Translations under genes and position numbers: made by a program
Shown here: piece by piece, positions 1,364 to 59,245 of the stretch
How the letters are laid out: every line of letters starts with the position of its first letter
Numbering within the stretch: the first letter of the stretch is position 1
Notes under the pieces: generated by a model
What the model was told of the DNA's origin: nothing
Database searches by the model: none
Seen by the model: only the letters and a program-made list of their open reading frames with translations
NCBI GenBank assembly: GCA_965226545.1
Contig: OZ245364.1
Coordinates: 1,771,890 to 1,835,889, forward strand
Direction of reading: 5' to 3'
Source: Candidatus Poriferihabitaceae bacterium
GTDB taxonomy: Bacteria > Pseudomonadota > Gammaproteobacteria > Arenicellales > Poriferihabitantaceae
Length of the DNA: 64,000 bases

Positions 1364-1924
1364 CTACCTTGGAACTTTCGTCGAGATTTTTTTCCGCAAG
1401 TCATCAGGCGACAATACCTCGACGTTTTCCAGCAATTGTTTGCCGATTACGCCGGTTAAATCGCCCCGTAAAGAATCTTTCATGTTGTCGAAATATATTT
1501 TGTCATCGTCGCTTTCCATTTTTCCGGCGACAAGCCAAAACTCGAATGCTCGATGCTCGAACAGTTTTTTTGCCTCGGTGTTTTTTGCCGATAAACGACA
1601 CAGCACCAGCATTGAGCCGTATGCTTTGAGTTGGTTTTCATCGCGAATTCGTTTGTTGACGATGTCATCTTTATCATTATCATCTAAGCAAGAGTACTCG
1701 TCTCGCACCATAGTGACAGTGCTCAACAAATCCGTTTCTTCAAGAAGAACAACGGCTTGATTGGTCGCCACAAAATAGTCACAACAATGTACTGTGCCTA
1801 ATCCAACATCGTCGCGCATATCAGTTGGCTCTCCAGACCCATCCATTCGATAGGCCGGATATTTACTTTTAATCTTTTTTTCACCGACAACAATCGGCTC
1901 CCTGTATTTTTCGAGTGACATCAC
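1364..1924 (-). CDS. hypothetical 186-aa protein, translationally coupled partner of the downstream twin ATPase
   Basis: ORF track entry. Its ATG overlaps the stop of the 1921-3312 ATPase by 4 nt. It is AT-richer than the flanks. I recognise no domain; there is a weak E..DxD pattern (IVVGEKK .. CLDDNDKDD). Confidence 0.6.
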   Translation of the reverse strand: MMSLEKYREPIVVGEKKIKSKYPAYRMDGSGEPTDMRDDVGLGTVHCCDYFVATNQAVVLLEETDLLSTVTMVRDEYSCLDDNDKDDIVNKRIRDENQLKAYGSMLVLCRLSAKNTEAKKLFEHRAFEFWLVAGKMESDDDKIYFDNMKDSLRGDLTGVIGKQLLENVEVLSPDDLRKKISTKVPR

Positions 1925-3312
1925 AACCCCGCCGTATACAAATCAGCAAAGGGTTTGGTCAATTCTCTTTTAATCGCCGCCATTTTGTCGTCAAAATCTT
2001 GACCATCAGCATCTTCGTTGTTAATCGGAAACTTGTTTAGGGCGATTAACTCTTTAGCATCAGGATTCTTTTTGGCATGCACTTCCAGCCATTTAAGAAT
2101 ATCCGGGCTGTGGGTGGCGATGACGACATGCACACCTTTTTCGGCGAGTGCAAACAAAGCCTTCGCCATAGTAACCTGCCACTCCGGATGAAGGTGGGCT
2201 TCCGGTTCATCAATGAAGAGAATGGAAGTCTCGTCCAATACTTTGCGTTCAATCAACAAAGCCAATACACCAAGATTAGTGGTGCCCATCGCAGTCGTCG
2301 ACAACGGAAACTTGCGTCCATTTTCCACAAACAGCAAGTTACCATCATCTGCAATAGTAATTTTTCCGCCCATCACTTTGTCCCCGGTCAAATTTTCATA
2401 AACATCCGAGAAAGCCATCTCACCTGTTTGGTCGAGTCGCAACGACCGAGCGAGGTCATAAAAATATTCCGGGATTCCAGTGATTCGCTTTCTCGCACTT
2501 AGCCAGTTCCACCCGCCAAGACGAACATCTTCCAAGGCATTTTTTAATTTCCAGTACACTGGAGACTCGAGATATGCAACTCTGGAGTATGCCTGCAACT
2601 CCATCAAGCCAGCGTGACTCATGTCAATACGAAACCTATTGTTTTCGATTTCCAGCATACCCAAATTGTCGATGTCAACCTTGGCTATCTGGTCTTTATT
2701 GCCCAGCAAATCCACAAGGTTTGGCACTTGGAAATTCTGAATCAGATTACTTGCAATCTTAGATTGCATTCCTTGTGCCAACAAATCCGAGGCGTTAACC
2801 TCCTCAAGGATTTTTTGTAAATTACCCAACTTTTCATCCAGTTCTTCCCAATATTTTTTAAAATCGTCTGCCGAAATCAACAAAGTTCTTTCGAGATTGC
2901 GCGGACATTTTCGAATGCCATCAATAGCATTTCGCACAGTTTCAATTTCTCGGATGATTTTTTGAGTAATTTCTTTAATCTTCCCGACATTATCAGCGGT
3001 AAAATTCTTAAATGCGTCTTCAATTTTTGCAATATGTCCAAAAATTGAGTTCACTTCTTCGTCCTCCAACTCGTTCATGGACAAAAACCGCATCATCTTA
3101 CCGAACGTGCGCGTTTCAGTGACAGGTTTCATTAAATTTTTAAAGTAAACGTCCGCATGATTCGCGTTCATCGCATCGAAAATCGAATACATCAACTTCG
3201 ACACAAAACTTTTGCCCGTGTTGTTAGGACCAGCAAGAACGGTAAACTGCCCGAACTCCAACTTGGCGTCGGTCAATTTACCAATATTCTTAATGTGAAC
3301 ATTAAATTTCAT
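1921..3312 (-). CDS. ABC/AAA15-type ATPase with intact motifs and a long helical insertion (SMC/OLD/PARIS-AriA-like architecture)
   Basis: Walker A is LAGPNNTGKSF. The C-terminal half carries STTAMGTTNLGVLALLIE, Walker B plus D-loop ILFIDEPEAHLHPEWQ, and H-loop IATHSP. The roughly 300 aa between the motifs are charged and helical. Confidence 0.8.
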   Translation of the reverse strand: MKFNVHIKNIGKLTDAKLEFGQFTVLAGPNNTGKSFVSKLMYSIFDAMNANHADVYFKNLMKPVTETRTFGKMMRFLSMNELEDEEVNSIFGHIAKIEDAFKNFTADNVGKIKEITQKIIREIETVRNAIDGIRKCPRNLERTLLISADDFKKYWEELDEKLGNLQKILEEVNASDLLAQGMQSKIASNLIQNFQVPNLVDLLGNKDQIAKVDIDNLGMLEIENNRFRIDMSHAGLMELQAYSRVAYLESPVYWKLKNALEDVRLGGWNWLSARKRITGIPEYFYDLARSLRLDQTGEMAFSDVYENLTGDKVMGGKITIADDGNLLFVENGRKFPLSTTAMGTTNLGVLALLIERKVLDETSILFIDEPEAHLHPEWQVTMAKALFALAEKGVHVVIATHSPDILKWLEVHAKKNPDAKELIALNKFPINNEDADGQDFDDKMAAIKRELTKPFADLYTAGL

Positions 3313-3342
3313 TTCGTTGCGTATCCGGTTGCGGGCGCGGCG

Positions 3343-3373
3343 ATTATAGCACTTTAAACATCACCTCTTGCAA
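3343..3373 (-). promoter_or_regulatory. candidate sigma70 promoter with extended -10 in the spacer between the two ATPase paralogues
   Basis: The minus strand reads TTGCAA-19 nt-(TGc)TATAAT, about 30 nt upstream of the ATG at 3312. The 19-nt spacing is long, which is partly offset by the TGn extended -10. Confidence 0.35.
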
Positions 3374-3394
3374 ACAAAACACCCACCGCCCCAC

Positions 3395-4786
3395 CTACAA
3401 CTCAACCAAATCCAAATCCGTAAACGGCTTAACAAATTCCTTTTTAATCGCCGTCATCTTTTCGTCAAAATTTTGATGCGCGGCTTGTTCGTTGTTGATC
3501 GGGAATTGGTTGAGGGCGATTAACGCCTTGTCCTGCGGGTTCTTTTTGGCTTGCACTTCCAGCCATTTAATAATGTACGGGCTGTGGGTGGTGATGGCGA
3601 TGTGTACGCCTTCGGATGCCAAGGCGAACAGCGTTTCGGCCATTAAGACCTGCCACGCGGGATGCAGATGCGCTTCGGGTTTGTCGATGAACAGAATCGA
3701 GTTTTCGTTTAATAGTTTGCGCTCCATCAACAACGCCAACATGCCGAGATTAACGGCGCCGGCGGATGCCGACAGCAGCAATGATTTGCGCTTGCCGGCA
3801 AATTCCCATTCGCCGTAATCGGGCACTTCGATTTTGCCGTCGATGGTTTGCTTGCCGGTTAACTTTCGATGCAATTCCGCAAACGCCGGGCGCCCGCTGC
3901 GGCCGGCTTTCAACGCATGCGCGAGGTCGTAAAACGATTTCGAAACCCCGTCGGCGTTGTCGTATAAATGCACATTGCGCAATTCGCGCCGGTTGAGATG
4001 AAAATATCTCAGCGATGGCATCAGTTGCCAATGCACCGCGGAATCCAAATACCACACATTGCAATCCGATTGCATTTGCGGCAAGGCGGCGTGGCTGATG
4101 ACGTTTTGCAAATCGCCGTTTTGGATTGCAAACATTTGCATCTCGCCGATATCGACCGAACTCGGCTTGCGTCGCTTGCTCGGCAACTCGGCGACACTTT
4201 TTACCTGAAACGCCTGCTGCATATTGTGGTCGAGTTGATGCTGTACGCCGCCGTCCAAAAAATCCGCAAAGTTGGTTTCCTGCAACGCCGTTTGCATTTC
4301 GCGCAGACGGTCATCGAATTCCTGCCAGTGTTTATTGACATCGCGCAACCGCACCGGCAACGTGCGTTCGTTTTCCTCCGCAGGGCGATGCAAATCCTCG
4401 GCGGCTTCGCGGATGGCTTCAACGTTTTCGATAATGCCGGCAATAATCGCGTTAAATTCATCGACATCATCCGCGGCAAAATCGGTAAACGCCGTCTCCA
4501 TTTTTTCGATGTTGTCAAAGATAATGTTAACTTCCTCGACATCCGATTTGCCAAAGGTCGAATAATTAATTTCGCGCAACAAATGCGCGCCGGCCACCGG
4601 GCGGAATAATTTGCGCAAATACGCATCCGCGTGATTCGAGTTAATGGCGTCAAAAATCGCATGCATCAACTGCAATGCAAAACGCTTGCCGGTATCGTTA
4701 TGCCCGACAAACACGGTAAACCGCCCAAACTCCAATTTGGAGTCGGTCAATTTACCAATGTTCTTAACATGAAAATCGAGTTTCAT
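3395..4786 (-). CDS. ABC/AAA15-type ATPase paralogue with degenerate nucleotide-binding motifs (predicted catalytically impaired)
   Basis: Same length (463 aa) as and collinear with the 1921-3312 product. Walker A reads FVGHNDTGKRF (Arg where Ser/Thr is expected). Walker B reads ILFIDKPEAHLHP (Lys where the catalytic Glu is expected). The H-loop TTHSP is retained. Confidence 0.75.
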   Translation of the reverse strand: MKLDFHVKNIGKLTDSKLEFGRFTVFVGHNDTGKRFALQLMHAIFDAINSNHADAYLRKLFRPVAGAHLLREINYSTFGKSDVEEVNIIFDNIEKMETAFTDFAADDVDEFNAIIAGIIENVEAIREAAEDLHRPAEENERTLPVRLRDVNKHWQEFDDRLREMQTALQETNFADFLDGGVQHQLDHNMQQAFQVKSVAELPSKRRKPSSVDIGEMQMFAIQNGDLQNVISHAALPQMQSDCNVWYLDSAVHWQLMPSLRYFHLNRRELRNVHLYDNADGVSKSFYDLAHALKAGRSGRPAFAELHRKLTGKQTIDGKIEVPDYGEWEFAGKRKSLLLSASAGAVNLGMLALLMERKLLNENSILFIDKPEAHLHPAWQVLMAETLFALASEGVHIAITTHSPYIIKWLEVQAKKNPQDKALIALNQFPINNEQAAHQNFDEKMTAIKKEFVKPFTDLDLVEL

Positions 4787-17395: not shown

Positions 17396-17998
17396 ATGAA
17401 TAAAACCGTTCTATACACTGTCGGCCACTCCACGCATGAAACCAAAGCGTTTATTGCGCTGTTAAAACAGCACGACATCACCGCCTTGTGTGATGTTCGT
17501 TCACAGCCGTACAGCCGCTACAACCCGCAATACAACCGCGAAACCTTAAAAGGCGAAATCAAAATGCACGGCATTCATTATGTTTATCTCGGCAAGGAAC
17601 TCGGGGCGCGCAGCGACAATGCGCAATGTTATGCAAACGGACAAGTGCAGTTTGCGCGGTTGGCGCGCGATGAAACATTTCAGCGCGGCTTAACGCGATT
17701 GCGCAACGGTGCAAGCGAACATAAAATTGCATTGATGTGCGCCGAGAAGGACCCGTTGGATTGTCATCGAATGATTTTGGTAACGCGGCAATTGCGCGGG
17801 GAATTTTCCGTGCATCACATTTGCGCCGACGGTGCAATCGAAACCAATCAACAAGCCGAGCATCGTCTGATGAAATTGGTCGGCATCCACCCGTCGGCGT
17901 TAATTGCCGACGAAGACAACATCGCCGCCGCGTACGACAAACGCGGTGAACGAATTGCATACAAACGCGACGCCGGCAAATCTGAATCATCGAAATGA
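17396..17998 (+). CDS. DUF488-family protein
   Basis: LYTVGHSTH..F..LLKQHDITALCDVRS.P.S..NPQYN and ALMCAEKDPLDCHR. Confidence 0.7.
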   Translation: MNKTVLYTVGHSTHETKAFIALLKQHDITALCDVRSQPYSRYNPQYNRETLKGEIKMHGIHYVYLGKELGARSDNAQCYANGQVQFARLARDETFQRGLTRLRNGASEHKIALMCAEKDPLDCHRMILVTRQLRGEFSVHHICADGAIETNQQAEHRLMKLVGIHPSALIADEDNIAAAYDKRGERIAYKRDAGKSESSK

Positions 17999-18441
17999 AC
18001 ATCGACCTCTACACCATCGGCTTCACTCAAAAGAAGGCGCAGGAATTTTTTGGCAAACTGCAATCGGCCGGCGTTAAGCGGGTGTTGGATGTGCGGTTGA
18101 ACAATGTTTCGCAATTGTCCGGTTTTGCCAAGCGTGATGATTTGGCTTATTTTTTGCGGCAAATCGGCGCGATGGAGTATTTGCATTTAACCGAGTTGGC
18201 GCCGACGCGCGACATTTTGGATGCGTATAAAAAACACAAGGGCGAATGGGCGGAGTATGAAAAACAATTTCTTGCATTGATGACGCAGCGGCGCATCGAA
18301 GATACGTTGGATAAAAAGATGATGCATGACGGTTGTTTGTTGTGCAGCGAACACCAACCGCATCATTGCCATCGACGATTGGTCGCCGAATATCTGCGGG
18401 AAAAATGGGGCGGTGAAATGCGGGTTACGCATTTGCTTTGA
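17995..18441 (+). CDS. DUF488-family protein, second divergent tandem copy
   Basis: LYTIGFTQKKAQEFF..LQSAGVKRVLDVRLNN and LLCSEHQPHHCHRRLVAEYL. A 4-nt ATGA overlap couples it to the preceding gene. Confidence 0.7.
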   Translation: MNIDLYTIGFTQKKAQEFFGKLQSAGVKRVLDVRLNNVSQLSGFAKRDDLAYFLRQIGAMEYLHLTELAPTRDILDAYKKHKGEWAEYEKQFLALMTQRRIEDTLDKKMMHDGCLLCSEHQPHHCHRRLVAEYLREKWGGEMRVTHLL

Positions 18442-19427: not shown

Positions 19428-19476
19428 TTTTGTATAACCATTTGATGTTTTTTTATAAAAAATTGTGAGAATGTGC

Positions 19477-19505
19477 TTGACTTCTGGATGCTTTGATTAC
19501 ATAAT
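19477..19505 (+). promoter_or_regulatory. candidate sigma70 promoter for the 19543 orphan gene
   Basis: TTGACT-17 nt-CATAAT, followed by a GAGG Shine-Dalgarno 8 nt before the ATG at 19543. Confidence 0.45.
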
Positions 19506-19542
19506 TCCAAACTCACTTAACTCAAATATTGAGGCATCTATT

Positions 19543-19956
19543 ATGTATATTCAACTGCAAGTTAATGAACAAATCTGCACTCGGCTTGCCGCTTACGCAT
19601 CCAAGAAAGATATTTCTTGGGAAGCGGCAATTGACGACTTGCTTACGAAATGTGAGCAAGAAAACTTATCGCGCTCCGTCGAGCCGCGTGCAGTTTCCGA
19701 AGATGAGCCAATTGAACTTGTCTTCCATCCCCACAGCAAACGAGAATTTAAACGTCTCCTTATGCAGCAAAAGCAGGCGTTTGTCCGGCGGTGGTATGAA
19801 AACGGTTCGCATAGTGACCATATCTGGAACGCAAGCAACTTCACTGTACATTCCGATTTGGTTGGCAATCTGCGAACCGGTTATGCCCAACGCACTCGGT
19901 GCCTTAAAGAGGGCGTCGTAAAAGTGGAGGTTTCCATTGAGCCGTTTGCCAACTAA
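19543..19956 (+). CDS. hypothetical protein, possible ribbon-helix-helix-like N-terminus
   Basis: I prefer the internal ATG at 19543 (GAGG SD plus promoter). MYIQLQVNEQICTRLAAYASKKDISWEAAIDDLL resembles CopG/RHH antitoxin N-termini. The region is AT-rich. Confidence 0.5.
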   Translation: MYIQLQVNEQICTRLAAYASKKDISWEAAIDDLLTKCEQENLSRSVEPRAVSEDEPIELVFHPHSKREFKRLLMQQKQAFVRRWYENGSHSDHIWNASNFTVHSDLVGNLRTGYAQRTRCLKEGVVKVEVSIEPFAN

Positions 19957-20112
19957 TGCGCTTGCAGTTGGCGCGTCACCGGCGCTTCAGTTTTGCCCGC
20001 CAATGCGGCGGGCAAAACTACCGCTTGGAATCCCAAGGTTGCCAAAAACCCGGACGGTTGCGGCACCCTCTAATTGATTTATTTACTTCACTACTTATTC
20101 GGAGAAAACCGT

Positions 20113-20454
20113 ATGACGAACAAAGAATTCATCGCTTCCGCATGGCGCAATAACTCGCTCGGTCACAAAACCGGTGCAGTCTTTGGTGTTTCGATTAATG
20201 TTTCCGGGCACAACATCCTCGAACAGATACTCGGATTACAAACACCCAACAAAGTCGAATTGCGAATCGATGGTGACTGGGTTTCCATCAATATCACTGA
20301 CACTTTTTGGACAACCTGCCCCGAATGGCGCAAAAAAGAAATCGGCGCTTGGTTAATCGCAAACAAGCGCGACGACTGGGAACTCAACAACCCTACGAAA
20401 ATTCGCGTAACGCATTTAGGCGACAATCGATTCGCGCTTGCGTTTGCTGATTAA
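20113..20454 (+). CDS. hypothetical protein, distant paralogue of the 24479-24802 product
   Basis: A GGAGAA SD precedes the ATG at 20113. The C-terminal motif KRDDWELNNPTKIRVTHLGDNRFAL matches KKWDDNRTPQVMLCHRGDDEFEV in the other ORF. Confidence 0.5.
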   Translation: MTNKEFIASAWRNNSLGHKTGAVFGVSINVSGHNILEQILGLQTPNKVELRIDGDWVSINITDTFWTTCPEWRKKEIGAWLIANKRDDWELNNPTKIRVTHLGDNRFALAFAD

Positions 20455-24369: not shown

Positions 24370-24402
24370 CTCGACGGGCGTTGTGCCCGTCGAGTTTTTT
24401 TA
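24370..24402 (+). terminator. rho-independent terminator after the TRAP binding-protein gene
   Basis: CTCGACGGGC-gttgt-GCCCGTCGAG followed by TTTTTTT. Confidence 0.8.
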
Positions 24403-24478
24403 TTGTTTATTTGTTTACTGTTTTGTTTATTATTTTTTTGTCCCTTATTTTTTTACCATTTTATTGTGTATTTGTTCA

Positions 24479-24802
24479 ATGATGTCCTATCGAAGATTCA
24501 CCCTAACACTCGGCTTCTACGGCGAGAAAAAACACCTGTACATGCCGGTGTCGCTCAACGAATGCGCGCGGATATTTCAGCGTGAATGGGAGTCGATAAA
24601 GTTGTATTATGACGACCGTTGCCTGACCGTGCCGTTGCGGTTTTGTGCGTGGAACAATCGCATCGAATTGGACAGCGAAGAACTTCACCGGTATTTGGAT
24701 GTCCTCATCGACACCAAAAAATGGGATGACAACCGCACCCCGCAAGTAATGTTGTGCCATCGCGGCGACGATGAATTCGAAGTCGTTGGGCGTGTGTTTT
24801 AA
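24479..24802 (+). CDS. hypothetical small protein inserted inside the TRAP operon, paralogue of the 20113-20454 product
   Basis: The track ORF is trimmed to the ATG at 24479, because the upstream part is a T-rich spacer. There is no clear SD. Support comes mainly from the shared C-terminal motif with the 20113 ORF. Confidence 0.4.
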   Translation: MMSYRRFTLTLGFYGEKKHLYMPVSLNECARIFQREWESIKLYYDDRCLTVPLRFCAWNNRIELDSEELHRYLDVLIDTKKWDDNRTPQVMLCHRGDDEFEVVGRVF

Positions 24803-26957: not shown

Positions 26958-28976
26958 ATGTCTGATTTAGGTCCCGGCAGAAATGCGCCCGCCGATTATG
27001 TGGCAATATGCCGCAACATCGCTGACAGTTACCCTGAAGGTATTTCGCATGGGTTGCAAAAAGACGCCATCCAAAACTCTTTGGATGCGCGCAAAAGCAA
27101 AAAAGCCACCGTGCACGTTTATTTCCGCGTGGTAAAAACCCGTCGCGGAAACTTCCTTACTTTCACTGACAGCAATACGACCGGTCTCACCGGCGATGTC
27201 AAGAGCGACATTGAAGATTACAAGCGTCTGGGCGAAGATGACCATTGGGCAAGATTTGAAGCTTTTGCATTCACAAAAGCCGACCCTGACGCTTTGGGGG
27301 CAAGAGGACAAGGCAAATTCATTTTTCTTCGTGCATCAGAACAATATCGCATGTTCTACGACACATTGCGGGATGACGGTGTATACCGACTTGGCGCCAC
27401 CGAAGTAACCACAGTTGGCCGCGAGAACTTCCCGTCTGGCGAAAAATGGGAAGATGCAACCGCAAAAGCGCGACTGCAGGAACACTGCGGATTAGACCCG
27501 CTGAGCGAAGTCGGCACTCGAATTATTGTCTGCGACCCCATCGAGGAAGTGTTGGAAGCGATTCGCAATGGCGAATTTGCTGGTGCCATTCAGGAAACTT
27601 GGTTTCGCGCGATTGAGAAAAAACAATTGAAGGTGTGGATTGACGCGTTTGACAAACGCGAGTCTGTTAATATTCCGGACATTCATCCGTTACCGAACAA
27701 AGATTCTGGTAACAACAAGACGTGGGTATTCCAAAAAGATTTTAATGATCCTGTTGTTACTGGCGACTTCAGAATTAAAAATTTTCACGCCGCATACCTT
27801 CCGGAATCTGACATTCCGGAAGCACTGCAAGGCATCGCAATTTTACAAGGCGGCATGAAAATCACCTCGCGCAATATTGATATGGCACCGCGAGATGTTA
27901 AGGAAAAAATCACCGGTTTTATCGAGTTTGACCGGGAACTGGACCAAGAGTTGCGAAAAGGCAACAACCAAAACCCCAACCACTACGATTTAAACTGGCG
28001 TCGTAGCACACCATCCGCCATCAAGAGTTTTATCGGGCGCCAATTACAAGATTTTGGACACAAAAAACTGGGAATTGGCGAAGACCGTCGAGCGCGGCAA
28101 AAGCGCACTCGAGATAACGCTGAGCAAGAAGCGATGAATATGTTGATGCGCTATGCGCCCGACTTGTCGCTCGCCGGCGGCAAAGTACGCCCTGGTCCAA
28201 ACCCACCTCCGCCGTCGCCGCCCCCACCCCCGTCGCACAAAAAAATTGGCGTTGGCATGTCGGTGCAATTCCCGGACGAAGCGAAAAAACCTCGCGTCGA
28301 CTGGGGGGATGAAATCCGGGTCACGGCGTCCTGTTTCAACAAAACAACGGCGGGCATTGCCGGCAAATTTGCTTTGCAAGTTTTACATGCCGACACGCCC
28401 ATCGAAAAATTGACCGAGGATGTAAATATTGATTTGCCCTCGGGCAGCACCGGCGCGCGCATTGTGCAAATTAACAACAACGAGGCTTTTGTCATAAATC
28501 TGGATAAAGCCCGATACAAAAATGCCGGTGAATACCGCATCCACGCGACATTGATAAACAGCGATAGTGGCGACAAAGTGGATACAGCCCGCCGAAAATT
28601 CTGGCTGGCGGAAGACCCGCCGCGTCGTTTGCCATTTGAACTAATCGCAACGTCGCTCGACGATAACCACGCTCGTTGGATTCCGAACGGGAGCGTTAAC
28701 GACTCCCCGGAAATTAGGTACAACACCAATCACCCGCATTACGAATCCTGCCAGGATGATGAGCAGAAGCATGCGGATTATTTGTTTAACATTTGCCTGG
28801 AAGGTGCATTGCATTTTATAATCACTCGTCCGCTTGGCGAAGACGAGAAGCCGGATTACACTCCGCTGGATACAACCGCAATTGTCGACGCCGACCCTCT
28901 CAACTTGCCGGGCATACTGTACGAAGAAATCAGCCTTTACTTCGCAAAAGTCCGATGGCGCATTCATGAGGATTGA
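26958..28976 (+). CDS. GHKL (Hsp90/MutL/MORC-like) ATPase-domain protein with a poly-proline linker and a beta-rich C-terminal region
   Basis: N-box-like LQKDAIQNSLDA, G1-like FTDSNTTGLTG, G2-like GARGQGKF, linker PGPNPPPPSPPPPPS. Visibly lower GC than the flanks. Confidence 0.65.
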   Translation: MSDLGPGRNAPADYVAICRNIADSYPEGISHGLQKDAIQNSLDARKSKKATVHVYFRVVKTRRGNFLTFTDSNTTGLTGDVKSDIEDYKRLGEDDHWARFEAFAFTKADPDALGARGQGKFIFLRASEQYRMFYDTLRDDGVYRLGATEVTTVGRENFPSGEKWEDATAKARLQEHCGLDPLSEVGTRIIVCDPIEEVLEAIRNGEFAGAIQETWFRAIEKKQLKVWIDAFDKRESVNIPDIHPLPNKDSGNNKTWVFQKDFNDPVVTGDFRIKNFHAAYLPESDIPEALQGIAILQGGMKITSRNIDMAPRDVKEKITGFIEFDRELDQELRKGNNQNPNHYDLNWRRSTPSAIKSFIGRQLQDFGHKKLGIGEDRRARQKRTRDNAEQEAMNMLMRYAPDLSLAGGKVRPGPNPPPPSPPPPPSHKKIGVGMSVQFPDEAKKPRVDWGDEIRVTASCFNKTTAGIAGKFALQVLHADTPIEKLTEDVNIDLPSGSTGARIVQINNNEAFVINLDKARYKNAGEYRIHATLINSDSGDKVDTARRKFWLAEDPPRRLPFELIATSLDDNHARWIPNGSVNDSPEIRYNTNHPHYESCQDDEQKHADYLFNICLEGALHFIITRPLGEDEKPDYTPLDTTAIVDADPLNLPGILYEEISLYFAKVRWRIHED

Positions 28977-28978
28977 AC

Positions 28979-29650
28979 ATGTCAGTTTTATTGCGTGAAA
29001 ATGCAACCATACGGGGCGAGCAAAAGGAAATCAAAGTTTTCCGCCCGTCCGGTTCTTTATCCCGGGAAAGCCGGGAACGCGCCGAACAACTTGATGTTTT
29101 TTTGGCGCGTGAAGTGCCGATTATGGCGGGGCGCGTAATGGACGTTCCGAAAAACAACACGCTCAAAAAATGGTACCGGTTTGGTCGGGAACTGCGCAAG
29201 ATTTTGGACAACAACAATCTTGTGTCTCGTTACGACCTGGAAAACGGTTTAATTTGGGCGGCTATCAAACAACATTTGCCGAAATCTATCGGCATCAAGG
29301 GAGCGGGGGAAGTGCAGGATGCAAAAACAAAACTTGGAGGGCACCGCGGGCACCTTGCAGAATGCTACGCAATTGCCGAACATGCTTGGGAAGATATCGA
29401 GTGGTTAAAACGCTGGACCGATTGGACAGAGTTTCACAACAGAGAAAGCATGTGCCGAGATAAGCGCGTACTTAAATTACTGCGCGAGGAAATTGCAAAA
29501 ATGAGTCCATACCCGAACCGTGATGTTTTTAGAGACATCATAAAACTGCTTTCGGCGCAAACCACCGGGAAAGACATCGCGGTGCTTGACGATTCCGTAA
29601 TCACGGAAAAGGTCCGTCAAGTTTTTAAGCAAATCAACCTTTCCGCTTAA
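28979..29650 (+). CDS. hypothetical 223-aa helical protein, tightly coupled partner of the GHKL ATPase
   Basis: The ATG lies 3 nt after the GHKL stop, with a GAGGA SD inside the upstream gene's 3' end (a TTG at 28973 would overlap by 4 nt). I recognise no domain. Confidence 0.6.
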   Translation: MSVLLRENATIRGEQKEIKVFRPSGSLSRESRERAEQLDVFLAREVPIMAGRVMDVPKNNTLKKWYRFGRELRKILDNNNLVSRYDLENGLIWAAIKQHLPKSIGIKGAGEVQDAKTKLGGHRGHLAECYAIAEHAWEDIEWLKRWTDWTEFHNRESMCRDKRVLKLLREEIAKMSPYPNRDVFRDIIKLLSAQTTGKDIAVLDDSVITEKVRQVFKQINLSA

Positions 29651-29739
29651 TGGACGGTAAAATAAAACAAATCAATAAATGCCAATTATCGATAAAAAAC
29701 ACACTCAAAACACAGACAACTTTCCCGACCATCCAACCC

Positions 29740-30411
29740 ATGCCAACCGAAAACTACGCCCTCTATCTCCTGGTCGCCGTCGGCTACATCGCATCGCCCG
29801 GGCCGGCGGTGTTTTTTGCCATCAACGGCGGCGCGACCATCGGCATTGGCAACACCGCCGTTGTTTTGTTCGGCAATACGATTGGCTTGGGGGCGTTGGC
29901 GTTAATCTCCGCGCTTGGCGTTGGGGCGGTGATACTCAACTCGGATGTGTTAACAAGCGTCATTAAAATCGCCGGCGCGCTGTGGTTGATTTACATGGGC
30001 GCAAAAATGATTTTGGCGAAGCCGTCCAACCCGCCGACCGTCAACACCGTCGCCCGCGCCAAGCCGGGTTGGGACAACAAACTGGTCGGGTTTTGCGAAG
30101 GGTTTTTGTTGGCGATTACCAACCCCAAACCCATCATCTTTTTCGTTTCCATTTACCCGCAATTCGTCGCGCCCAACACAAGTGCGATTCAACAGTTAAC
30201 CGCACTCGGCGTAACTTTCATGTGCCTGTCCTTTGTCGTGCTTAATGGCTATTCGATTTTTTCCAAACTAACCATCGGCCGCATCGCCAACCCGCGCACC
30301 GCGCGAATCATCAACTGGATTTTCGGAATCACATTTGTGGCGTTGGCGTTTTTTCTCATCCGCCAAATTCCCGTTATCGACCGTATTGCAGGGTATACTG
30401 CGCGTCCGTGA
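29740..30411 (+). CDS. LysE/RhtB-family translocator (small-molecule exporter)
   Basis: MPTENYALYLLVAVGYIASPGPAVFFAINGG.. and a 6-TM pattern of about 220 aa. The start is moved to the ATG at 29740. Confidence 0.75.
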   Translation: MPTENYALYLLVAVGYIASPGPAVFFAINGGATIGIGNTAVVLFGNTIGLGALALISALGVGAVILNSDVLTSVIKIAGALWLIYMGAKMILAKPSNPPTVNTVARAKPGWDNKLVGFCEGFLLAITNPKPIIFFVSIYPQFVAPNTSAIQQLTALGVTFMCLSFVVLNGYSIFSKLTIGRIANPRTARIINWIFGITFVALAFFLIRQIPVIDRIAGYTARP

Positions 30412-30487: not shown

Positions 30488-31735
30488 ATGAAAATTCAAC
30501 AATTTATTAACGAACGACACAAATACAAAGTCGATAAAACCTACCAACGACCGGAAGGCGTTTGGTCGCGCGCGGACAAGCAATGTTTGATTGACACCAT
30601 TCTCCGTGCGGAACCGATTCCTATATTTTTCCTGAATCACATTTCACGGGAAGATTTTTATTACATTGTCGATGGACAACAACGGTTGCATGCAATCCAA
30701 CAGTTCCATGACAATAAATTTACACTTGACGAAAAGTTTTCGTTGTCGAAAGACCACGGAAAAAATTTTAACGGCAACAACCCAATTTCTGATGAGCAGC
30801 GTGAGCAGTTTCTGGAGTACAAACTTAACTTCAAAATGCTCAAGGATTATGATGACGAACGCATAAGAATGATTTTTTCGCGCCTACAACGCGGAAAACC
30901 GCTTCAATTAGGCGAAAGATTAAATGCTAAACCCGGCAATATTGTGTTGCGCATGCGAGAAATCGCCGAGCATCCATTTATGCGCGAATCGATTGGGGTA
31001 CCCAAAAAACGTTACGGCAATTATCCGGACGCAGCGCGCATATTGTTTTACGAAAAATTCGGCGCCAAGCACATGGGGGCGGAAGAAATCAACAACTTTT
31101 TCGACACATACCGCGATATGGATAGAAACGACAAAGATTACAAATCTGTTGTCCGCGTCCTAAATTACCTTGCCCGGTGTTTCCCGTCGGAGCCGGGAGA
31201 TTACGCGTATTTAAGCAAGCACGCGTGGGTATTGGCGGCATATGGCATGGCGCGTAACTTGCTGTTGCGATATTCGACCGCCAACATTGAAAACAAAATC
31301 CAAGGTTTTGTTCGTTCGTTTCACAGCAAAGTCTATTCTGAGGATTGGCGCGGTTCCAACCCGGAAATCCAAAAATTTTACGAAAATGTTCGCGGCGGCT
31401 GGTCGGAAAAAATCATCAGCCTGCGAGCCGACATCCTGTTAAAACATTGCTTGGAGAAAATCAAACCCAACGCATTGAGCGATACTCGGCAAATTACCGA
31501 TGAAGAAAAGGCGCGCATATACGGCGAGCGAGGAGAGTGCTGCGAACGTTGCAGCACGCAGTTTAATGACCACAGGGAGCCGGAGTATCACCACATCAAA
31601 CGATATGTCGACGGTGGCGAAAGCCACATCGACAATATTGAAATGCTTTGCCGCGAATGCCATAAAAAAGTGCATGGCAAGAGCGACATTACTGAAACCG
31701 TGTCGATGCAAGACGAACCCGACGATGTAGAATAG
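30488..31735 (+). CDS. DUF262 (ParB/GmrSD N-terminal-like) protein fused to a C-terminal HNH nuclease; type IV restriction-like
   Basis: The N-terminus has YQRPEGVWSRADKQCLIDTIL....PIP.IF and the IVDGQQRLHAI (DGQQR) motif. The C-terminus has CERCSTQF...EYHHIKRYVDGGESHIDNIEMLCRECHKKVH. The gene is AT-rich. Confidence 0.8.
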   Translation: MKIQQFINERHKYKVDKTYQRPEGVWSRADKQCLIDTILRAEPIPIFFLNHISREDFYYIVDGQQRLHAIQQFHDNKFTLDEKFSLSKDHGKNFNGNNPISDEQREQFLEYKLNFKMLKDYDDERIRMIFSRLQRGKPLQLGERLNAKPGNIVLRMREIAEHPFMRESIGVPKKRYGNYPDAARILFYEKFGAKHMGAEEINNFFDTYRDMDRNDKDYKSVVRVLNYLARCFPSEPGDYAYLSKHAWVLAAYGMARNLLLRYSTANIENKIQGFVRSFHSKVYSEDWRGSNPEIQKFYENVRGGWSEKIISLRADILLKHCLEKIKPNALSDTRQITDEEKARIYGERGECCERCSTQFNDHREPEYHHIKRYVDGGESHIDNIEMLCRECHKKVHGKSDITETVSMQDEPDDVE

Positions 31736-35209: not shown

Positions 35210-35290
35210 TTGGTGTAAATGACCGCTGCTTTAAGCGGGGTCGCCACTGTGGATAAGCGCACTTCCGTAAACAAATTTCCGGAGTAAACA

Positions 35291-35560
35291 ATGTCTACCA
35301 TTTATCGACAACAAGAATTTGACGCCGAGTTGCGAAAAATGTTGTGCAAGGCAAACGCCAAAGGTCAACCGCGCGTTTGCATAGTCGCAAAAAAACTGCA
35401 CGACCGTGTTGTGAAAACGAACGAAAACCGTATGCGAATGGCATGCAAGGCGATGCGGAAACTTAAAGAACAACAAGGCATAGAAGCAAAAGTTATTTCC
35501 GAGCCGCCGAGCGGAGAAAGCACTACTCTGGAAATCGAATTCGACACCGCAACAATTTGA
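35291..35560 (+). CDS. hypothetical 89-aa basic protein
   Basis: A GGAG SD lies 8 nt upstream. The gene is AT-richer than its neighbours, and I recognise no domain. Confidence 0.4.
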   Translation: MSTIYRQQEFDAELRKMLCKANAKGQPRVCIVAKKLHDRVVKTNENRMRMACKAMRKLKEQQGIEAKVISEPPSGESTTLEIEFDTATI

Positions 35561-35599
35561 CCGATCAATCGGTCGATAACGTTTGCCTCTGCCAACAAC

Positions 35600-35630
35600 A
35601 TGAATCAAAACAATCGAAGTTTTGATTCAT
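35600..35630. terminator. perfect 12-bp stem hairpin between convergent genes (possible bidirectional terminator)
   Basis: ATGAATCAAAAC-aatcgaa-GTTTTGATTCAT. There is no strong U-tract on either side. Confidence 0.4.
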
Positions 35631-50607: not shown

Positions 50608-51162
50608 TTAGCCGCGAGATTTCTTTTTGAGCGGTGCGTTGAGAGCCAGTTCATCCAAATGCGAATCGAGTTCGATGAATTTGGAGCAAGTTCTTTTTAG
50701 TTCGGCCGATGTTCGCGCCCAAAAAACGACTTCCACTGTAAAGCCGTCTTTGACCAACATCTCAACCGGCGGGATGAAATCGCCATCGCCGGACACCAAC
50801 AAAATTTTATGGTGTGCGGGGCCGTCGCTAACATAAGCGTCTTTAATCATGTCTTTGACGATGGAGGTATCAACGCCTTTTTCTTTATTGGCGACATTGC
50901 GGTCTCTAATTTCCAATTCAAACCCGGCGGATTTGGCGCGCGCCCACAGCGAATCATTCGGCGGCGGACGCGAACCGACCAACAACGCCCGACCAATCTC
51001 GCCATCACCGTTTTGGGTAACAAAACGGTAGAGTTTGCCAAAATCAATTTTGTAGTTGAGGTCGAGCGTTTTGCCGCTCTTGTCATTTTTCCCAATCGCC
51101 GCCGCAACACGTTGCCCTTCGATAAACAAATTGGAGTTGTCGATATAGATAAACTTTTTCAT
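50608..51162 (-). CDS. NYN-domain (LabA/PIN-like) predicted ribonuclease
   Basis: MKKFIYIDNSNLFIEG.., EKGVDTSIVKDMI, ILLVSGDGDFIPPVE. The start is trimmed to the ATG at 51162. Confidence 0.75.
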   Translation of the reverse strand: MKKFIYIDNSNLFIEGQRVAAAIGKNDKSGKTLDLNYKIDFGKLYRFVTQNGDGEIGRALLVGSRPPPNDSLWARAKSAGFELEIRDRNVANKEKGVDTSIVKDMIKDAYVSDGPAHHKILLVSGDGDFIPPVEMLVKDGFTVEVVFWARTSAELKRTCSKFIELDSHLDELALNAPLKKKSRG

Positions 51163-51200
51163 TGCGTTTACTCTCGTTGATGTTTTGCACGGTGTGGTGT

Positions 51201-51240
51201 AGAAAAACCGCGCACCATTGTTAAGTGGCGGCGCGGTTTT
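51201..51240 (-). terminator. hairpin terminator/attenuator between the small ORF and the NYN gene
   Basis: AAAACCGCGC..17 nt..GCGCGGTTTT, with a U-run on the minus strand. Confidence 0.5.
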
Positions 51241-51245
51241 GGGTG

Positions 51246-51509
51246 TCACTTATCGTCAAGCACGTTGTCCAGTGTTTCCAGATTCAACGGCAATTCTTCC
51301 ATAATTTTGGTGGCGTTATTTTCGGCGCTCCATTCGGAAAAGGCGATAATCATTTCTTTGTTTTTGCATTTTTGTTCGCTGTGTTTGCCGCCATAGTGGT
51401 CGAAGCAGTTTTGGCTGTTAATCGCCCACTTCACCAACACCCCTATGGCGCAGTCGCCCGGATTAATCGGTTTGCGGTCGTAATCGGTTTTAAGGAATTC
51501 ATCGGTCAT
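51246..51509 (-). CDS. hypothetical 87-aa protein upstream of the NYN nuclease
   Basis: A GAGGTG SD lies 6 nt before the ATG at 51509. The product is Cys/His-containing (DCAIGVLVKWAINSQNCFDHYGGKHSEQKC). Confidence 0.5.
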   Translation of the reverse strand: MTDEFLKTDYDRKPINPGDCAIGVLVKWAINSQNCFDHYGGKHSEQKCKNKEMIIAFSEWSAENNATKIMEELPLNLETLDNVLDDK

Positions 51510-51638
51510 TTGGGTCACCTCGTTTGATGTGAAGTCGGAATGGATTTTAACACAAGTGCCGCGCATAAAAAACCGCGCATGTTGTGCGCGGTTATTGGGC
51601 GGCGGTCGGCGATTCTGTTATGGCAAATCGCAGAATCA

Positions 51639-57343: not shown

Positions 57344-59245
57344 TCACCGCCCCCGCATAAACCATTTATCAATCTCCCCAAGCGAAACCCGCATCCAAGT
57401 CGGGCGACCGTGATTGCATTGTCCGGCGCGTTCGACTTGTTCCATTTGGCGCAACAGCGCATTCATTTCGATGTGGGTGAGTTTGCGGTTGGCGCGAATC
57501 GAGCCGTGGCAGGCGGCGGTCGATAAAATTTCATGTTGCGCGTTTTCGATTCGTTGGCTGCTGCCGTGCGCGATTAAATCGGCGAGTGCATCGCGAATCA
57601 ATTCGGCGATATCCAAATTGGCGAGCAATTCCGGCGCGGCGCGGATGATGAGTTGTTCGTCGCCGACCATCTCCATATCAAAACCAATCTCGTTAAATTG
57701 CGCGCCAAACAGCATAGCGGCTTCGGCTTCATCCGGGTTGACGACCACGGCAATCGGCACCAACAACGGTTGACTGGACGGATTTTTTTCGCCCGCTTGG
57801 CGTTTTAAGGTTTCATAAGTAATGCGTTCATGCGCGGCATGCATATCGACCATCACCAAACCATCGGCGTTTTCGGCGAGGATGTACGCGCCTTTAAGTT
57901 GCGCCAATGCATACCCCATCGGCGGAATTTCCGCGCCGTCAGTTTCGACCCAAGCGTCGCCCATCGATTCGCGCGAAGCATTATCGACGCCGCCAACATT
58001 GCCGGCGAATGCATCGGCTGAGCGATGTAACTCACCGTAAGGTTGCAGTTGCTCGGCAACCGACAGATGATGTTGGCGATGATTGGTTGGATAGAAAAAT
58101 GGTTTTGATGATGACGGTGACGACGGTGACAGTGACTGTGCCGACGCCGCCAACGCCGCATCAGGTGTCGGCAGATTAACCGCGCCATCGCCGACTGCAA
58201 GGTTGGCGATAACTCGATGCAGCGTTCGATAAATATAATCCTGCACCGCGCGCATCTCGCGAAATCTGACTTCGGTTTTTGCCGGATGCACATTAACATC
58301 GACCAAGTTCGGCGCAATTTGCAAAAACAACACAAACGCCGGATGCCGTCCGTGATACAGCACATCGTTATAAGCGCGGCGCACCGCATGCGCGATTAAA
58401 TAATCGCGCACCGCGCGTTGATTAACAAAAAAATGCTGCATGTCGCGTTGGCTGCGCGAGAAAGTCGGCAAACCAATCCACCCTTGCAACTGCAATGCAC
58501 CGGCATGGTCGTCGACGGCGACACTTTGTTCGGCAAACGGCGCGCCGCAAATCGCCGCCAACCGCGCGCGGCGTTGTGCATCATCATTGGCGGCGCGCGC
58601 GTGAAACAGCGTTTTGCCGTCGTGGGCGAATTCGATTTCGATTTGTTCATGCGCCAATGCGATGCGGCGCACGACTTCCTGCATGTATTTTAATTCGGTG
58701 CGTTCGCTGCGCATAAACTTGCGCCGCGCCGGCGTGTTGTAAAACAACTCGGCGACTTCAATCGTCGTGCCCGGCGGATGTGCCGCGGGTTTGAGTTCGC
58801 CGAATTGTCCGCCGTCGCAGGTGATACTGCAGGCGTGTGCGGCATCGGCGATGCGCGAGGTTAATGTCAAACGCGACACGGCGGCGATGCTCGGCAAGGC
58901 TTCGCCGCGAAAACCGAGCGTGGTGATGTTGTATAAATCGTCGAAGCGATTTAGTTTGCTGGTGGCGTGGCGCGACAATGCAAGCCGCGCGTCGACTTCG
59001 GCGATGCCGCCGCCGTTGTCCTGCACGACCACGCGCTTAAAGCCGCCGCTTTCGGTTCGTATGCGAATGTGGGTTGCGCCGGCGTCGACGCTGTTTTCCA
59101 ATAATTCCTTTAACAACGACGCCGGGCGTTCAATCACTTCGCCGGCGGCGATTTGATTGATGAGTTTGTCATCCAACTGCACAATTCCACCACGCGCGGA
59201 TGCGGGCGGGGCGACGGATTGGGCGGCGGTGCGCGACATTGGCAA
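57344..59245 (-). CDS. mutL: DNA mismatch repair protein MutL
   Basis: LINQIAAGEVIERPASLLKELLENSVDAGA (GHKL N-box), DNGGGI, LGFRGEAL, and a C-terminal dimerisation domain. Confidence 0.95.
   Translation of the reverse strand: MPMSRTAAQSVAPPASARGGIVQLDDKLINQIAAGEVIERPASLLKELLENSVDAGATHIRIRTESGGFKRVVVQDNGGGIAEVDARLALSRHATSKLNRFDDLYNITTLGFRGEALPSIAAVSRLTLTSRIADAAHACSITCDGGQFGELKPAAHPPGTTIEVAELFYNTPARRKFMRSERTELKYMQEVVRRIALAHEQIEIEFAHDGKTLFHARAANDDAQRRARLAAICGAPFAEQSVAVDDHAGALQLQGWIGLPTFSRSQRDMQHFFVNQRAVRDYLIAHAVRRAYNDVLYHGRHPAFVLFLQIAPNLVDVNVHPAKTEVRFREMRAVQDYIYRTLHRVIANLAVGDGAVNLPTPDAALAASAQSLSPSSPSSSKPFFYPTNHRQHHLSVAEQLQPYGELHRSADAFAGNVGGVDNASRESMGDAWVETDGAEIPPMGYALAQLKGAYILAENADGLVMVDMHAAHERITYETLKRQAGEKNPSSQPLLVPIAVVVNPDEAEAAMLFGAQFNEIGFDMEMVGDEQLIIRAAPELLANLDIAELIRDALADLIAHGSSQRIENAQHEILSTAACHGSIRANRKLTHIEMNALLRQMEQVERAGQCNHGRPTWMRVSLGEIDKWFMRGR

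Follow-up and report, generated by a model that had tools for sequence, protein, structure and literature searches.

Two adjacent genes in a 64,000-nucleotide stretch of contig OZ245364.1 from a Candidatus Poriferihabitaceae bacterium (the whole of this stretch is called the window here) encode a divergent GHKL ATPase with an S5 transducer, protein A, and a smaller partner, protein B. On balance we favor the view that the pair is the two-gene core of a restriction-modification (R-M)-like or defense module that acts on DNA, the defensive role being read from genomic context. Together they make up a family that is new and without annotation, with a minimal architecture that is also new, and they belong to a kind that is known though experimentally unexplored. 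The kind itself is not new, since MORC and paraMORC1-5 ATPases, which also combine GHKL and S5 domains, have already been described in prokaryotic R-M operons containing Dcm and Vsr (Iyer, Abhiman & Aravind 2008, PMC2292703). A first-pass annotation of the window, made from the sequence alone, had singled out the pair as a candidate novel defense system, and this proposal gains support from the operonic methylases with Vsr or HhH-GPD genes and from the GmrSD, DndB-like and Abi_2 neighbors that we observed in related loci.

A translationally coupled gene pair

Genes A and B are real, intact and translationally coupled open reading frames (ORFs). The junction reads ...CAT GAG GAT TGA AC ATG..., with the stop codon of A at 28974-28976 followed by a 2-nt gap and the ATG of B, and the Shine-Dalgarno sequence of B lies within the last codons of A, as the first-pass annotation had proposed. 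A second possible start for B is an in-frame TTG at 28973. The GC content of A (0.50) and B (0.48) is lower than that of the flanking DctM (0.57) and histidinol-dehydrogenase-like (hisD-like; 0.62) genes, again in line with the annotation. Scans for promoters and terminators near the pair gave sites that were not above the level of shuffled sequences.

The related loci were drawn from genomes (77 loci), metagenomes (80 loci) and a small number of contigs from exact-protein look-ups, which left 160 after removal of near duplicates. Among the 144 loci that extend at least 650 nt past A, 140 carry a homologue of B downstream of A, so that the co-occurrence of the two genes, raised as a check by the annotation, is clear. 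The offset between the stop of A and the start of B has a median of 3 nt across these loci, and pairwise A-A and B-B identities are correlated with an r of 0.92. No A-B fusion was present among 334 retrieved proteins. An 876-residue homologue (P0064) was considered as a fusion and rejected: its 200 additional residues precede the conserved start, so that the gene was probably called too long.

Protein A is a GHKL ATPase with an S5 transducer

The AlphaFold2 (AF2) model of A, built on 40 homologues, has a predicted local distance difference test score (pLDDT) of 88, with values below 50 solely in the proline linker (residues 409-415). A Foldseek search of this model against the PDB gave 177 matches at E≤0.001, of which the best 50 were listed. 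Within these 50, the top matches are Hsp90, TRAP1 and GRP94 with E values of about 1e-10 (lowest, 7.6e-11), followed by MORC3 and MORC4 with E values of 1e-9 to 1e-7 and TM-target scores of 0.50 to 0.56, and SMCHD1, GyrB43 and TopoVI-B are also present. The alignments span 400 to 450 columns and cover the N-terminal and middle domains of Hsp90/TRAP1 and the ATPase modules of MORC3/4, GyrB43 and SMCHD1; residues ∼1-345 of A therefore comprise a GHKL domain followed by an S5 transducer. Protein A thus has the features of both the GHKL and the S5 class, namely a Bergerat fold, the motifs in order and an S5 domain directly after the GHKL domain, and the Bergerat fold expected by the annotation for the N-terminal domain is borne out by E values of 1e-10 to 1e-7 to GHKL-transducer structures.

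The alignment to Methanosarcina mazei TopoVI-B extends over ∼670 to 700 columns, and the overall domain order is therefore similar to that of A: GHKL, a transducer with long helices and a C-terminal β-sandwich, the M. mazei protein carrying an Ig-like domain at its C terminus. However, the TM-score is only ∼0.33 and A shows no sequence similarity to TopoVI-B. A Top6A/Spo11-like partner is also absent, with no Toprim domain detectable in B and no match to a 5Y-CAP fold.

The ATP-binding motifs are strongly conserved. The first, LQKDAIQNSLDA at residues 33-44, places Asp36 where a glutamate is usual, the second is FTDSNTTGLTG at residues 69-79, and together with the G2 box they give the spacing D36xxxN40xxD43, D71xxxxG76xxG79 and G114xxG117xG119K120. 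The annotation had read three ordered GHKL signatures with Asp for the N-box Glu, and this reading stands on the modeled Bergerat fold. In a set of 72 family proteins with identities as low as ∼25%, Gln34, Lys35, Asp36 and Asn40 are kept in 70, Thr74 in 69 and Arg188 in 71, while Asp71, Gly76, Gly114, Gly117, Gly119, Lys120, Gly186, Trp215, Met300 and His342 are invariant. The model has lowered pLDDT over residues 101-120, which is consistent with a mobile ATP lid. Position 338, at the C-terminal end of S5, holds Glu in 50 of the 72 proteins and Gln in the other 22, which include the window clade, and the resulting (E/Q)xxxH motif is a candidate γ-phosphate sensor or substrate site.

A long helical hairpin after the transducer may serve as a docking or dimerization element. 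It is followed by the flexible linker PGPNPPPPSPPPPPS, noted in the first-pass annotation and with a poly-Pro consensus kept across the close clade of A. The beta-rich C-terminal module of that annotation is right in part: a β-sandwich at residues 430-590 is followed by a helical domain at residues 593-671. Only Asn461, Pro554, Phe560, Asn589 (61/72), His592 (69/72) and Tyr608 (69/72) are widely conserved in the C-terminal half. The window protein reads H592-P-H594, but the second histidine is not conserved and the family consensus is HPxY; no nuclease motif was recognized in the helical domain. The coordinates of these elements and of the neighboring genes are compiled in Table 1.

Table 1. 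Features of the A-B locus, with positions in the window
Feature	Position	Strand	Basis
Gene A, 672-aa divergent GHKL+S5 ATPase	26958..28976	+	ATG ORF, homologues, AF2 model, Foldseek
GHKL (Bergerat-fold) ATP-binding domain, ~residues 14-220	26997..27617	+	Secondary structure, Foldseek
Motif I/N-box QKDAIQNSLDA, residues 34-44; Asn40 is the Mg-binding Asn	27057..27089	+	Sequence, conservation
Motif II/G1 box DSNTTGLTG, residues 71-79	27168..27194	+	Sequence, conservation
Motif III/G2 box GARGQGKF, residues 114-121, at the ATP lid	27297..27320	+	Sequence, conservation
S5-fold transducer, ~residues 224-345	27627..27992	+	Foldseek
Q338-N-P-N-H342, family (E/Q)xxxH motif, C-terminal end of S5	27969..27983	+	Conservation
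Long helical hairpin, residues 350-399	28005..28154	+	AF2 secondary structure
Pro-rich flexible linker PGPNPPPPSPPPPPS, residues 409-427	28182..28238	+	Sequence, pLDDT <50 at 409-415
β-Sandwich module without family assignment, residues 430-590	28245..28727	+	AF2 strands
C-terminal helical domain, residues 593-671, after conserved N589..H592..Y608	28734..28970	+	AF2 helices
Shine-Dalgarno GAGGA for gene B, within last codons of gene A	28968..28972	+	Sequence
Gene B, 223-aa partner without match among solved or viral predicted structures	28979..29650	+	ATG ORF, AF2, Foldseek
LysE-family exporter gene, in low-GC insert	29650-30411, likely true start near 29740	+	Library match
GmrSD_N (DUF262)+HNH protein, 415 aa, GC 0.46	30488-31735	+	Best PADLOC match NsnA, E 4e-20

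Sequence libraries are almost silent on A. It matched no Pfam family at E≤1 and none in NCBIfam or PHROGs, and neither phmmer nor a 40-sequence profile found anything in the PDB. When HATPase_c_3 and HATPase_c from Pfam were compared with 10 distant members, a single sub-threshold match resulted (E of 0.025; bit score of 15, cutoff 25). With PADLOC v2, the only match of A was to PDC-M33A, restricted to the N-box region (residues 32-65, E of 4e-6, 34 of 627 model positions); a full-length match to this PADLOC candidate was not obtained, and we found no mention of PDC-M33 in the papers searched. Six distant A members, B and four distant B members had no PADLOC v2 match at all. Mza and the other systems of PADLOC v2 were considered and rejected, no system model being matched by A or B beyond this N-box stretch, which agrees with the view of the annotation that no named system fits. 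The fold, the lack of a named counterpart and the pairing of the genes thus all came out as the annotation had anticipated for a new system.

The Foldseek result also bears on the idea that A is a housekeeping chaperone or regulator, either Hsp90/HtpG-like or a CapK-like GHKL kinase, with B as its co-chaperone or substrate and no role in DNA conflict. The best E values among the matches listed belong to Hsp90-family structures, and pairs of a GHKL kinase and a small partner that regulate immune operons do exist, such as CapK-CapS, a two-gene unit beside immune genes (PMC13373217). However, MORC, GyrB and TopoVI-B are as good as Hsp90 by TM-score among those same matches. CapK belongs to the SpoIIAB type of protein kinases, with an HTH-STAS-GHKL architecture and no S5, and CapS is a STAS-wHTH protein (PMC13373217), whereas A has an S5 transducer and neither A nor B has a Pfam match to STAS or HTH; a kinase-substrate pair of this type was rejected on these grounds. 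The rarity and patchiness of the family, the low GC content and inserted position of the pair and the dominance of DNA methylases in its context also argue against a housekeeping role, which we regard as highly improbable.

Protein B is a single, fast-evolving family

The AF2 model of B, built on 40 diverse family members, has a pLDDT of 86.8 and a predicted TM-score of 0.81. In it, an N-terminal β-hairpin (residues 3-22) precedes a long helix, which is followed by a helical bundle. The annotation had described B as all-helical and without a recognizable motif; the hairpin contradicts the former, while the latter holds, as B gave nothing significant in Pfam, NCBIfam, PADLOC, PHROGs or PDB sequence searches. 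Foldseek likewise found no match in the PDB or BFVD, with best E values of 0.6 and 0.4, respectively.

A single-sequence search recovers just 15 homologues of B, and iterated hidden Markov models (HMMs) place the ORFs directly downstream of A in nearly all related loci in one B family. This family is poorly conserved, with a mean column identity of 24%. Gly69 and Trp149 are invariant and Trp93 and Trp146 nearly so, and no acidic cluster or catalytic-looking signature is present among the conserved residues.

A small, closed and patchily distributed family

One search returned 363 full-length homologues of A, of ∼660 to 680 residues and all unnamed. When 1.84 billion representative proteins were searched with a profile, 515 clusters at 50% identity were found, 273 of them at E≤1e-30, and A and its homologues form a small, closed family that stands well apart from other GHKL ATPases. 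Its hosts belong to many bacterial phyla, to CPR lineages and to archaea (Thor-, Bathy-, Woese- and Pace- lineages and other Asgard and DPANN groups), with a patchy distribution across phyla, and nearly all are metagenome-assembled genomes. The proteins nearest to the window A belong to the sponge-associated Ca. Spongiihabitans, Poriferihabitaceae and Porisulfidus. The sole cultured host that we saw is Paraliobacillus quinghaiensis (WP_117156350.1 / WP_117156352.1), in which both genes are annotated as hypothetical proteins.

DNA methylases and X genes in related loci

The evidence that carries the R-M-like reading comes from the neighborhoods. A DNA methyltransferase is present in the fetched flanks of 60 of the 114 adequately flanked loci (∼53%), of the C5 type in 55 and of the N6_N4 type in 5. 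C5 methylases are rare per genome. Judged against this general rarity, and with loci that are not independent of one another, a methylase within 8 kb in about 50% of cases is a strong association. The Pfam family most commonly found directly adjacent to A-B is the C5 methylase, followed by HhH-GPD, PIN and Vsr. Co-directional operons of the order X>A>B>C5>HhH-GPD, in which X is a gene upstream of A, recur on many independent metagenome contigs, and operons of this type are likewise found in genomes of many phyla and in archaea. Several compact A-B loci contain no other gene fit to be the restriction partner of the methylase.

The X gene, directly upstream of A and on the same strand, is present in 63 of 128 loci. 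It takes one of two unrelated forms that never occur together, a helical protein of ∼75 residues (up75, as in L137, L142, L153 and L158) or a protein of ∼350 residues (up350, as in L039, L044 and L161), and the possibility that up75 is a fragment of up350 was rejected since the two share no sequence similarity. Phe13, Ala17, Arg20, Asn36, Tyr40 and Tyr42 are invariant in up75. The C terminus of up350 gives a sub-threshold match to an ArsR-type wHTH (E of 0.065) and its N terminus appears RHH-like by eye; this protein looks DNA binding. Neither form has a significant match in Pfam, NCBIfam, PADLOC, PHROGs or the PDB.

The C5 methylase near A-B usually has one companion, Vsr or an EndoIII/MutY-like HhH-GPD glycosylase, and almost never both. 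This alternation suggests two interchangeable solutions for the repair of T:G mismatches after deamination of 5-methylcytosine (5mC). The HhH-GPD glycosylase next to the methylase carries an Fe-S motif.

Such neighbors could also mean that A-B is itself a repair accessory, a MutL-like matchmaker that helps Vsr or the Mig-like HhH-GPD enzyme to fix 5mC-deamination mismatches. E. coli MutL stimulates Vsr, A contains a GHKL+S5 module of the MutL type, and the mutually exclusive Vsr or HhH-GPD genes stand beside A-B and a C5 methylase in many loci. Against this, about half of the loci, the window included, have no Vsr, HhH-GPD or C5 methylase, and A-B is linked to N6/N4 methylases too, whose chemistry has no such deamination problem. 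The window genome already carries a MutL-like gene, assigned by motif, at 57344-59245. Furthermore, Vsr and Mig-type genes accompany Dcm generally (PMC2292703), and the methylase alone therefore explains their presence. A repair role is, in our estimate, improbable.

The shared operon might instead indicate that A-B helps the methylase, by loading, targeting or regulating it or by compacting methylated DNA, in an epigenetic role without any part in defense. MORC-mediated silencing in eukaryotes operates together with DNA methylation, which offers a precedent, and no nuclease is recognized in the module. Nevertheless, A-B commonly occurs without a linked methylase, the associated methylases belong to unrelated classes, and modification-dependent nucleases and Abi genes are neighbors as well, and we hold such a helper function to be very unlikely.

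The other neighbors of A-B loci are PIN/MazE pairs, GmrSD, DndB-like genes and Abi_2. Of these, the PIN/MazE, GmrSD and Abi_2 genes are island-typical and fit a further explanation, a methylation-independent abortive-infection or toxin-antitoxin-like pair in which A is an ATP-dependent sensor or switch and B the toxic effector, or the reverse, and the methylases merely share the island. The tightly coupled two-gene architecture, the fast evolution of B and its lack of a structural match, and a window clade mostly devoid of methylases are all in its favor. It accounts less well for a methylase that often follows B directly as part of one co-directional operon and for a linkage that recurs with two chemically different methylase classes, and conserved features of a catalytic or membrane type were not found in B. 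We consider it unlikely.

The window copy and its close relatives

The window holds a minimal, methylase-less copy of A-B in a low-GC insert. Only 88 nt separate DctM from A, and there is therefore no X gene. The genes directly upstream in several members of the close clade (at least 40% identity to the window A) include a DndB-like gene, GmrSD or Abi_2, and an N6_N4 methylase lies directly upstream in L078, which encodes a 72%-identical homologue, and in L095, L096, L105 and L106.

Downstream of B, the DUF262-HNH gene starts 838 nt past the end of B, and the gap is filled by the LysE exporter gene, whose longest ORF overlaps the stop of B by 1 nt and whose family match begins at about residue 31-47. 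The first-pass annotation had placed this restriction-type nuclease 0.8 kb away as part of the defense context; the distance is right, but the gene belongs to a separate insert. At a syntenic locus with 62% identity (L079), the order is DctQ-DctM-[A-B]-histidinol-dehydrogenase-like-SDR, with neither LysE nor DUF262-HNH. Because A-B stands alone at the same site there, we take A-B to be a self-contained insert and DUF262-HNH to be separate cargo. The two downstream genes were accordingly rejected as parts of the module; no homologue of DUF262-HNH was found in the other loci either.

Weighing the R-M-like reading

Several observations weigh against A-B as the core of an R-M-like module. The window and most of its close relatives (L001-L018) have no nearby methylase, so that the close clade is mostly without one, and no C5 or N6_N4 methylase is present within the 64-kb window. 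In four loci (L024, L027, L037 and L040), a protein of ∼510 to 550 residues with a FokI cleavage domain (Pfam E of 4e-7) lies beside the C5 methylase; this protein may be a Type IIS-like enzyme in its own right, in which case the methylase may be its own and A-B may only share the island. No nuclease, helicase or other effector domain was recognized in A, B or X. An Asp in place of the catalytic Glu in the N-box of A is unusual, and ATP turnover may therefore be slow or regulatory. All A-B members are annotated as hypothetical proteins. Homologues of A were found in none of the PLSDB plasmids, GenBank phages or IMG/VR sequences; these searches therefore lend no support to an origin in phages or plasmids, and the mobility of A-B is inferred only from composition and patchiness. 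Finally, genes in the related loci were called as longest ORFs, and these loci do not represent independent lineages.

Comparison with known systems

The closest published relatives in kind are the MORC and paraMORC ATPases. Like A, they begin with a GHKL domain whose ATP motifs are intact, continue with an S5 domain and end in a C-terminal extension specific to the family; like the A-B loci, they have a sporadic distribution in bacteria and archaea and neighbors that include Vsr and a cytosine (rarely adenine) methylase (PMC2292703). Nonetheless, the S5 motif GhXhhpXXRhl is absent from the window A, with one off-position chance regular-expression match among the 72 members, and the Pfam model HATPase_c_3 (PF13589) does not find the window A at E≤1. 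A-B also lacks a fused or regularly adjacent SF-II helicase, restriction endonuclease (RE)-fold, HNH, TIR or HxH domain, while PMC2292703 describes neither the obligate partner B nor the X genes, and the N-box of A has Asp rather than Glu.

The stated hallmark of paraMORC2 is an ExxxH motif at the same place in S5 (PMC2292703), and the A family has E338xxxH342 (Glu in 50/72, with Gln in the window clade; His in 72/72), a likeness by published motif description only. paraMORC2 was described mainly from the cyanobacterial and Gram-positive genomes of 2008 (PMC2292703), whereas nearly all hosts of A belong to uncultured lineages. The paraMORC3, -4 and -5 groups also differ, as neither Pfam nor the alignment reveals a C-terminal RE-fold nuclease (E-D-ExK), a TIR domain or a conserved HxH in A.

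A GHKL ATPase with a clamp-like middle region has been proposed to gate the anti-phage effector of the type I-D Shedu protein VcSduA (PMC12137116). VcSduA, however, is a single polypeptide with a DUF4263 PD-(D/E)xK nuclease, whereas A has no nuclease domain and a separate partner. A classical Type II R-M system was considered and rejected, as the window has no adjacent methylase and no endonuclease domain or motif was found in A, B or X. BREX is a methylation-based system of six or so genes (PglX, PglZ, BrxC, BrxL and others), with a self-marking methyltransferase and essential ATPases, and to our knowledge it has no known nuclease. The resemblance is one of working principle only, as no component is homologous and the PADLOC BREX models are not matched by A-B.

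Other genes in the window

The window holds further small low-GC inserts of a defense-like character. On the minus strand at 1364-4786 are two paralogous genes for 462-residue AAA_15/AAA_21 ATPases and a 185-residue ORF without matches (GC content of 0.43 to 0.51); the best PADLOC matches in this region are HEC-02A, PD-T4-4_A, NsnB and AriA, with E values of 1e-32 to 1e-20, and these genes are probably the first candidate defense system of the annotation. Two overlapping tandem DUF488 genes at 17396-18441 on the plus strand match the PADLOC candidates PDC-M45B and PDC-M45C nearly end to end (E of 2e-78 and 3e-72). At 50608-51566 on the minus strand, a 212-residue NYN-domain protein (Pfam E of 2e-18; PADLOC NYN) is overlapped by a 105-residue ORF of no known family, both with a GC content of 0.46 to 0.49. 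Small ORFs at 19465-20454 (plus strand) and 35231-35608 (minus strand) have a GC content of 0.45 to 0.46 and no Pfam or PADLOC match.

A 139-residue ORF without family and with a GC content of 0.44 lies between DctP and DctQ at 24383-24802 on the plus strand. The same gap in L079 (4108-5971) contains a different insert, with two NTP_transf_2 genes and two 175-residue ORFs, and it looks like an insertion hot spot. The 633-residue ORF at 57344-59245 on the minus strand, with the N terminus ..LINQIAAGEVIER, is canonical MutL-like by motif only; if it is MutL, the host would seem to have an ordinary MutL besides gene A.

Proposed mode of action and significance

In the R-M-like reading that we favor, A would bind ATP through the four intact GHKL motifs seen on the modeled fold, with Asp36 as the putative general base. 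As for MutL, GyrB, Hsp90 and MORC, its fold class predicts closure into an N-terminally dimerized clamp, in which the S5 transducer with the invariant His342 would sense the nucleotide. Translational coupling would supply B in a fixed ratio, and B, which co-evolves with A, probably binds it as an adaptor or effector. In relatives with an operonic X gene and an m5C or N6/N4 methylase, methylation probably marks self, as the context suggests, and X-A-B would act on unmarked DNA. With no recognizable nuclease in A, B or X, the output would therefore be either a cryptic nuclease site, for which Asn589, His592 and Tyr608 of A and Arg123, His125 and Tyr130 of B are candidates, or a non-cleaving block in which ATP-driven clamping or compaction stops replication in a BREX-like manner. 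Any one specific output is less probable than the R-M-like reading taken overall. The window copy was probably acquired horizontally into the TRAP-transporter/catabolic cluster of a probable sponge-symbiont gammaproteobacterium, where it may rely on an unlinked methylase or operate without methylation.

The second of these outputs can be extended into a more specific proposal, immunity or silencing that is nuclease free throughout: a MORC-like, ATP-gated clamp in X-A-B would trap or compact DNA that lacks the cognate methyl mark and thereby keep this DNA, though left uncut, from being replicated or expressed. B would then be an adaptor that binds DNA or a partner, the solitary pair of the window would be a methylation-independent derivative, and the whole could be a prokaryotic counterpart, possibly a relative, of methylation-coupled MORC silencing in eukaryotes. 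We put this forward as a speculative and unlikely proposal.

GHKL+S5 ATPases in R-M-type operons were predicted in 2008, are almost uncharacterized biochemically and have been proposed as ancestors of the eukaryotic MORC silencing ATPases. The A-B family adds to them a compact unit of an ATPase, a partner of ∼220 residues without structural relatives and an optional small gene and methylase, one that sequence searches with Pfam, NCBIfam, PADLOC and the PDB fail to reveal and that is nearly confined to uncultured bacteria, CPR and archaea, including Asgard. If a cryptic nuclease resides in A or B, it would have a new nuclease fold. If A-B is defensive, it would add an unrecognized system to the defense repertoire of environmental and symbiont microbes and would provide a minimal model for a GHKL clamp that reads the methylation state of DNA and for restriction without a recognizable nuclease.

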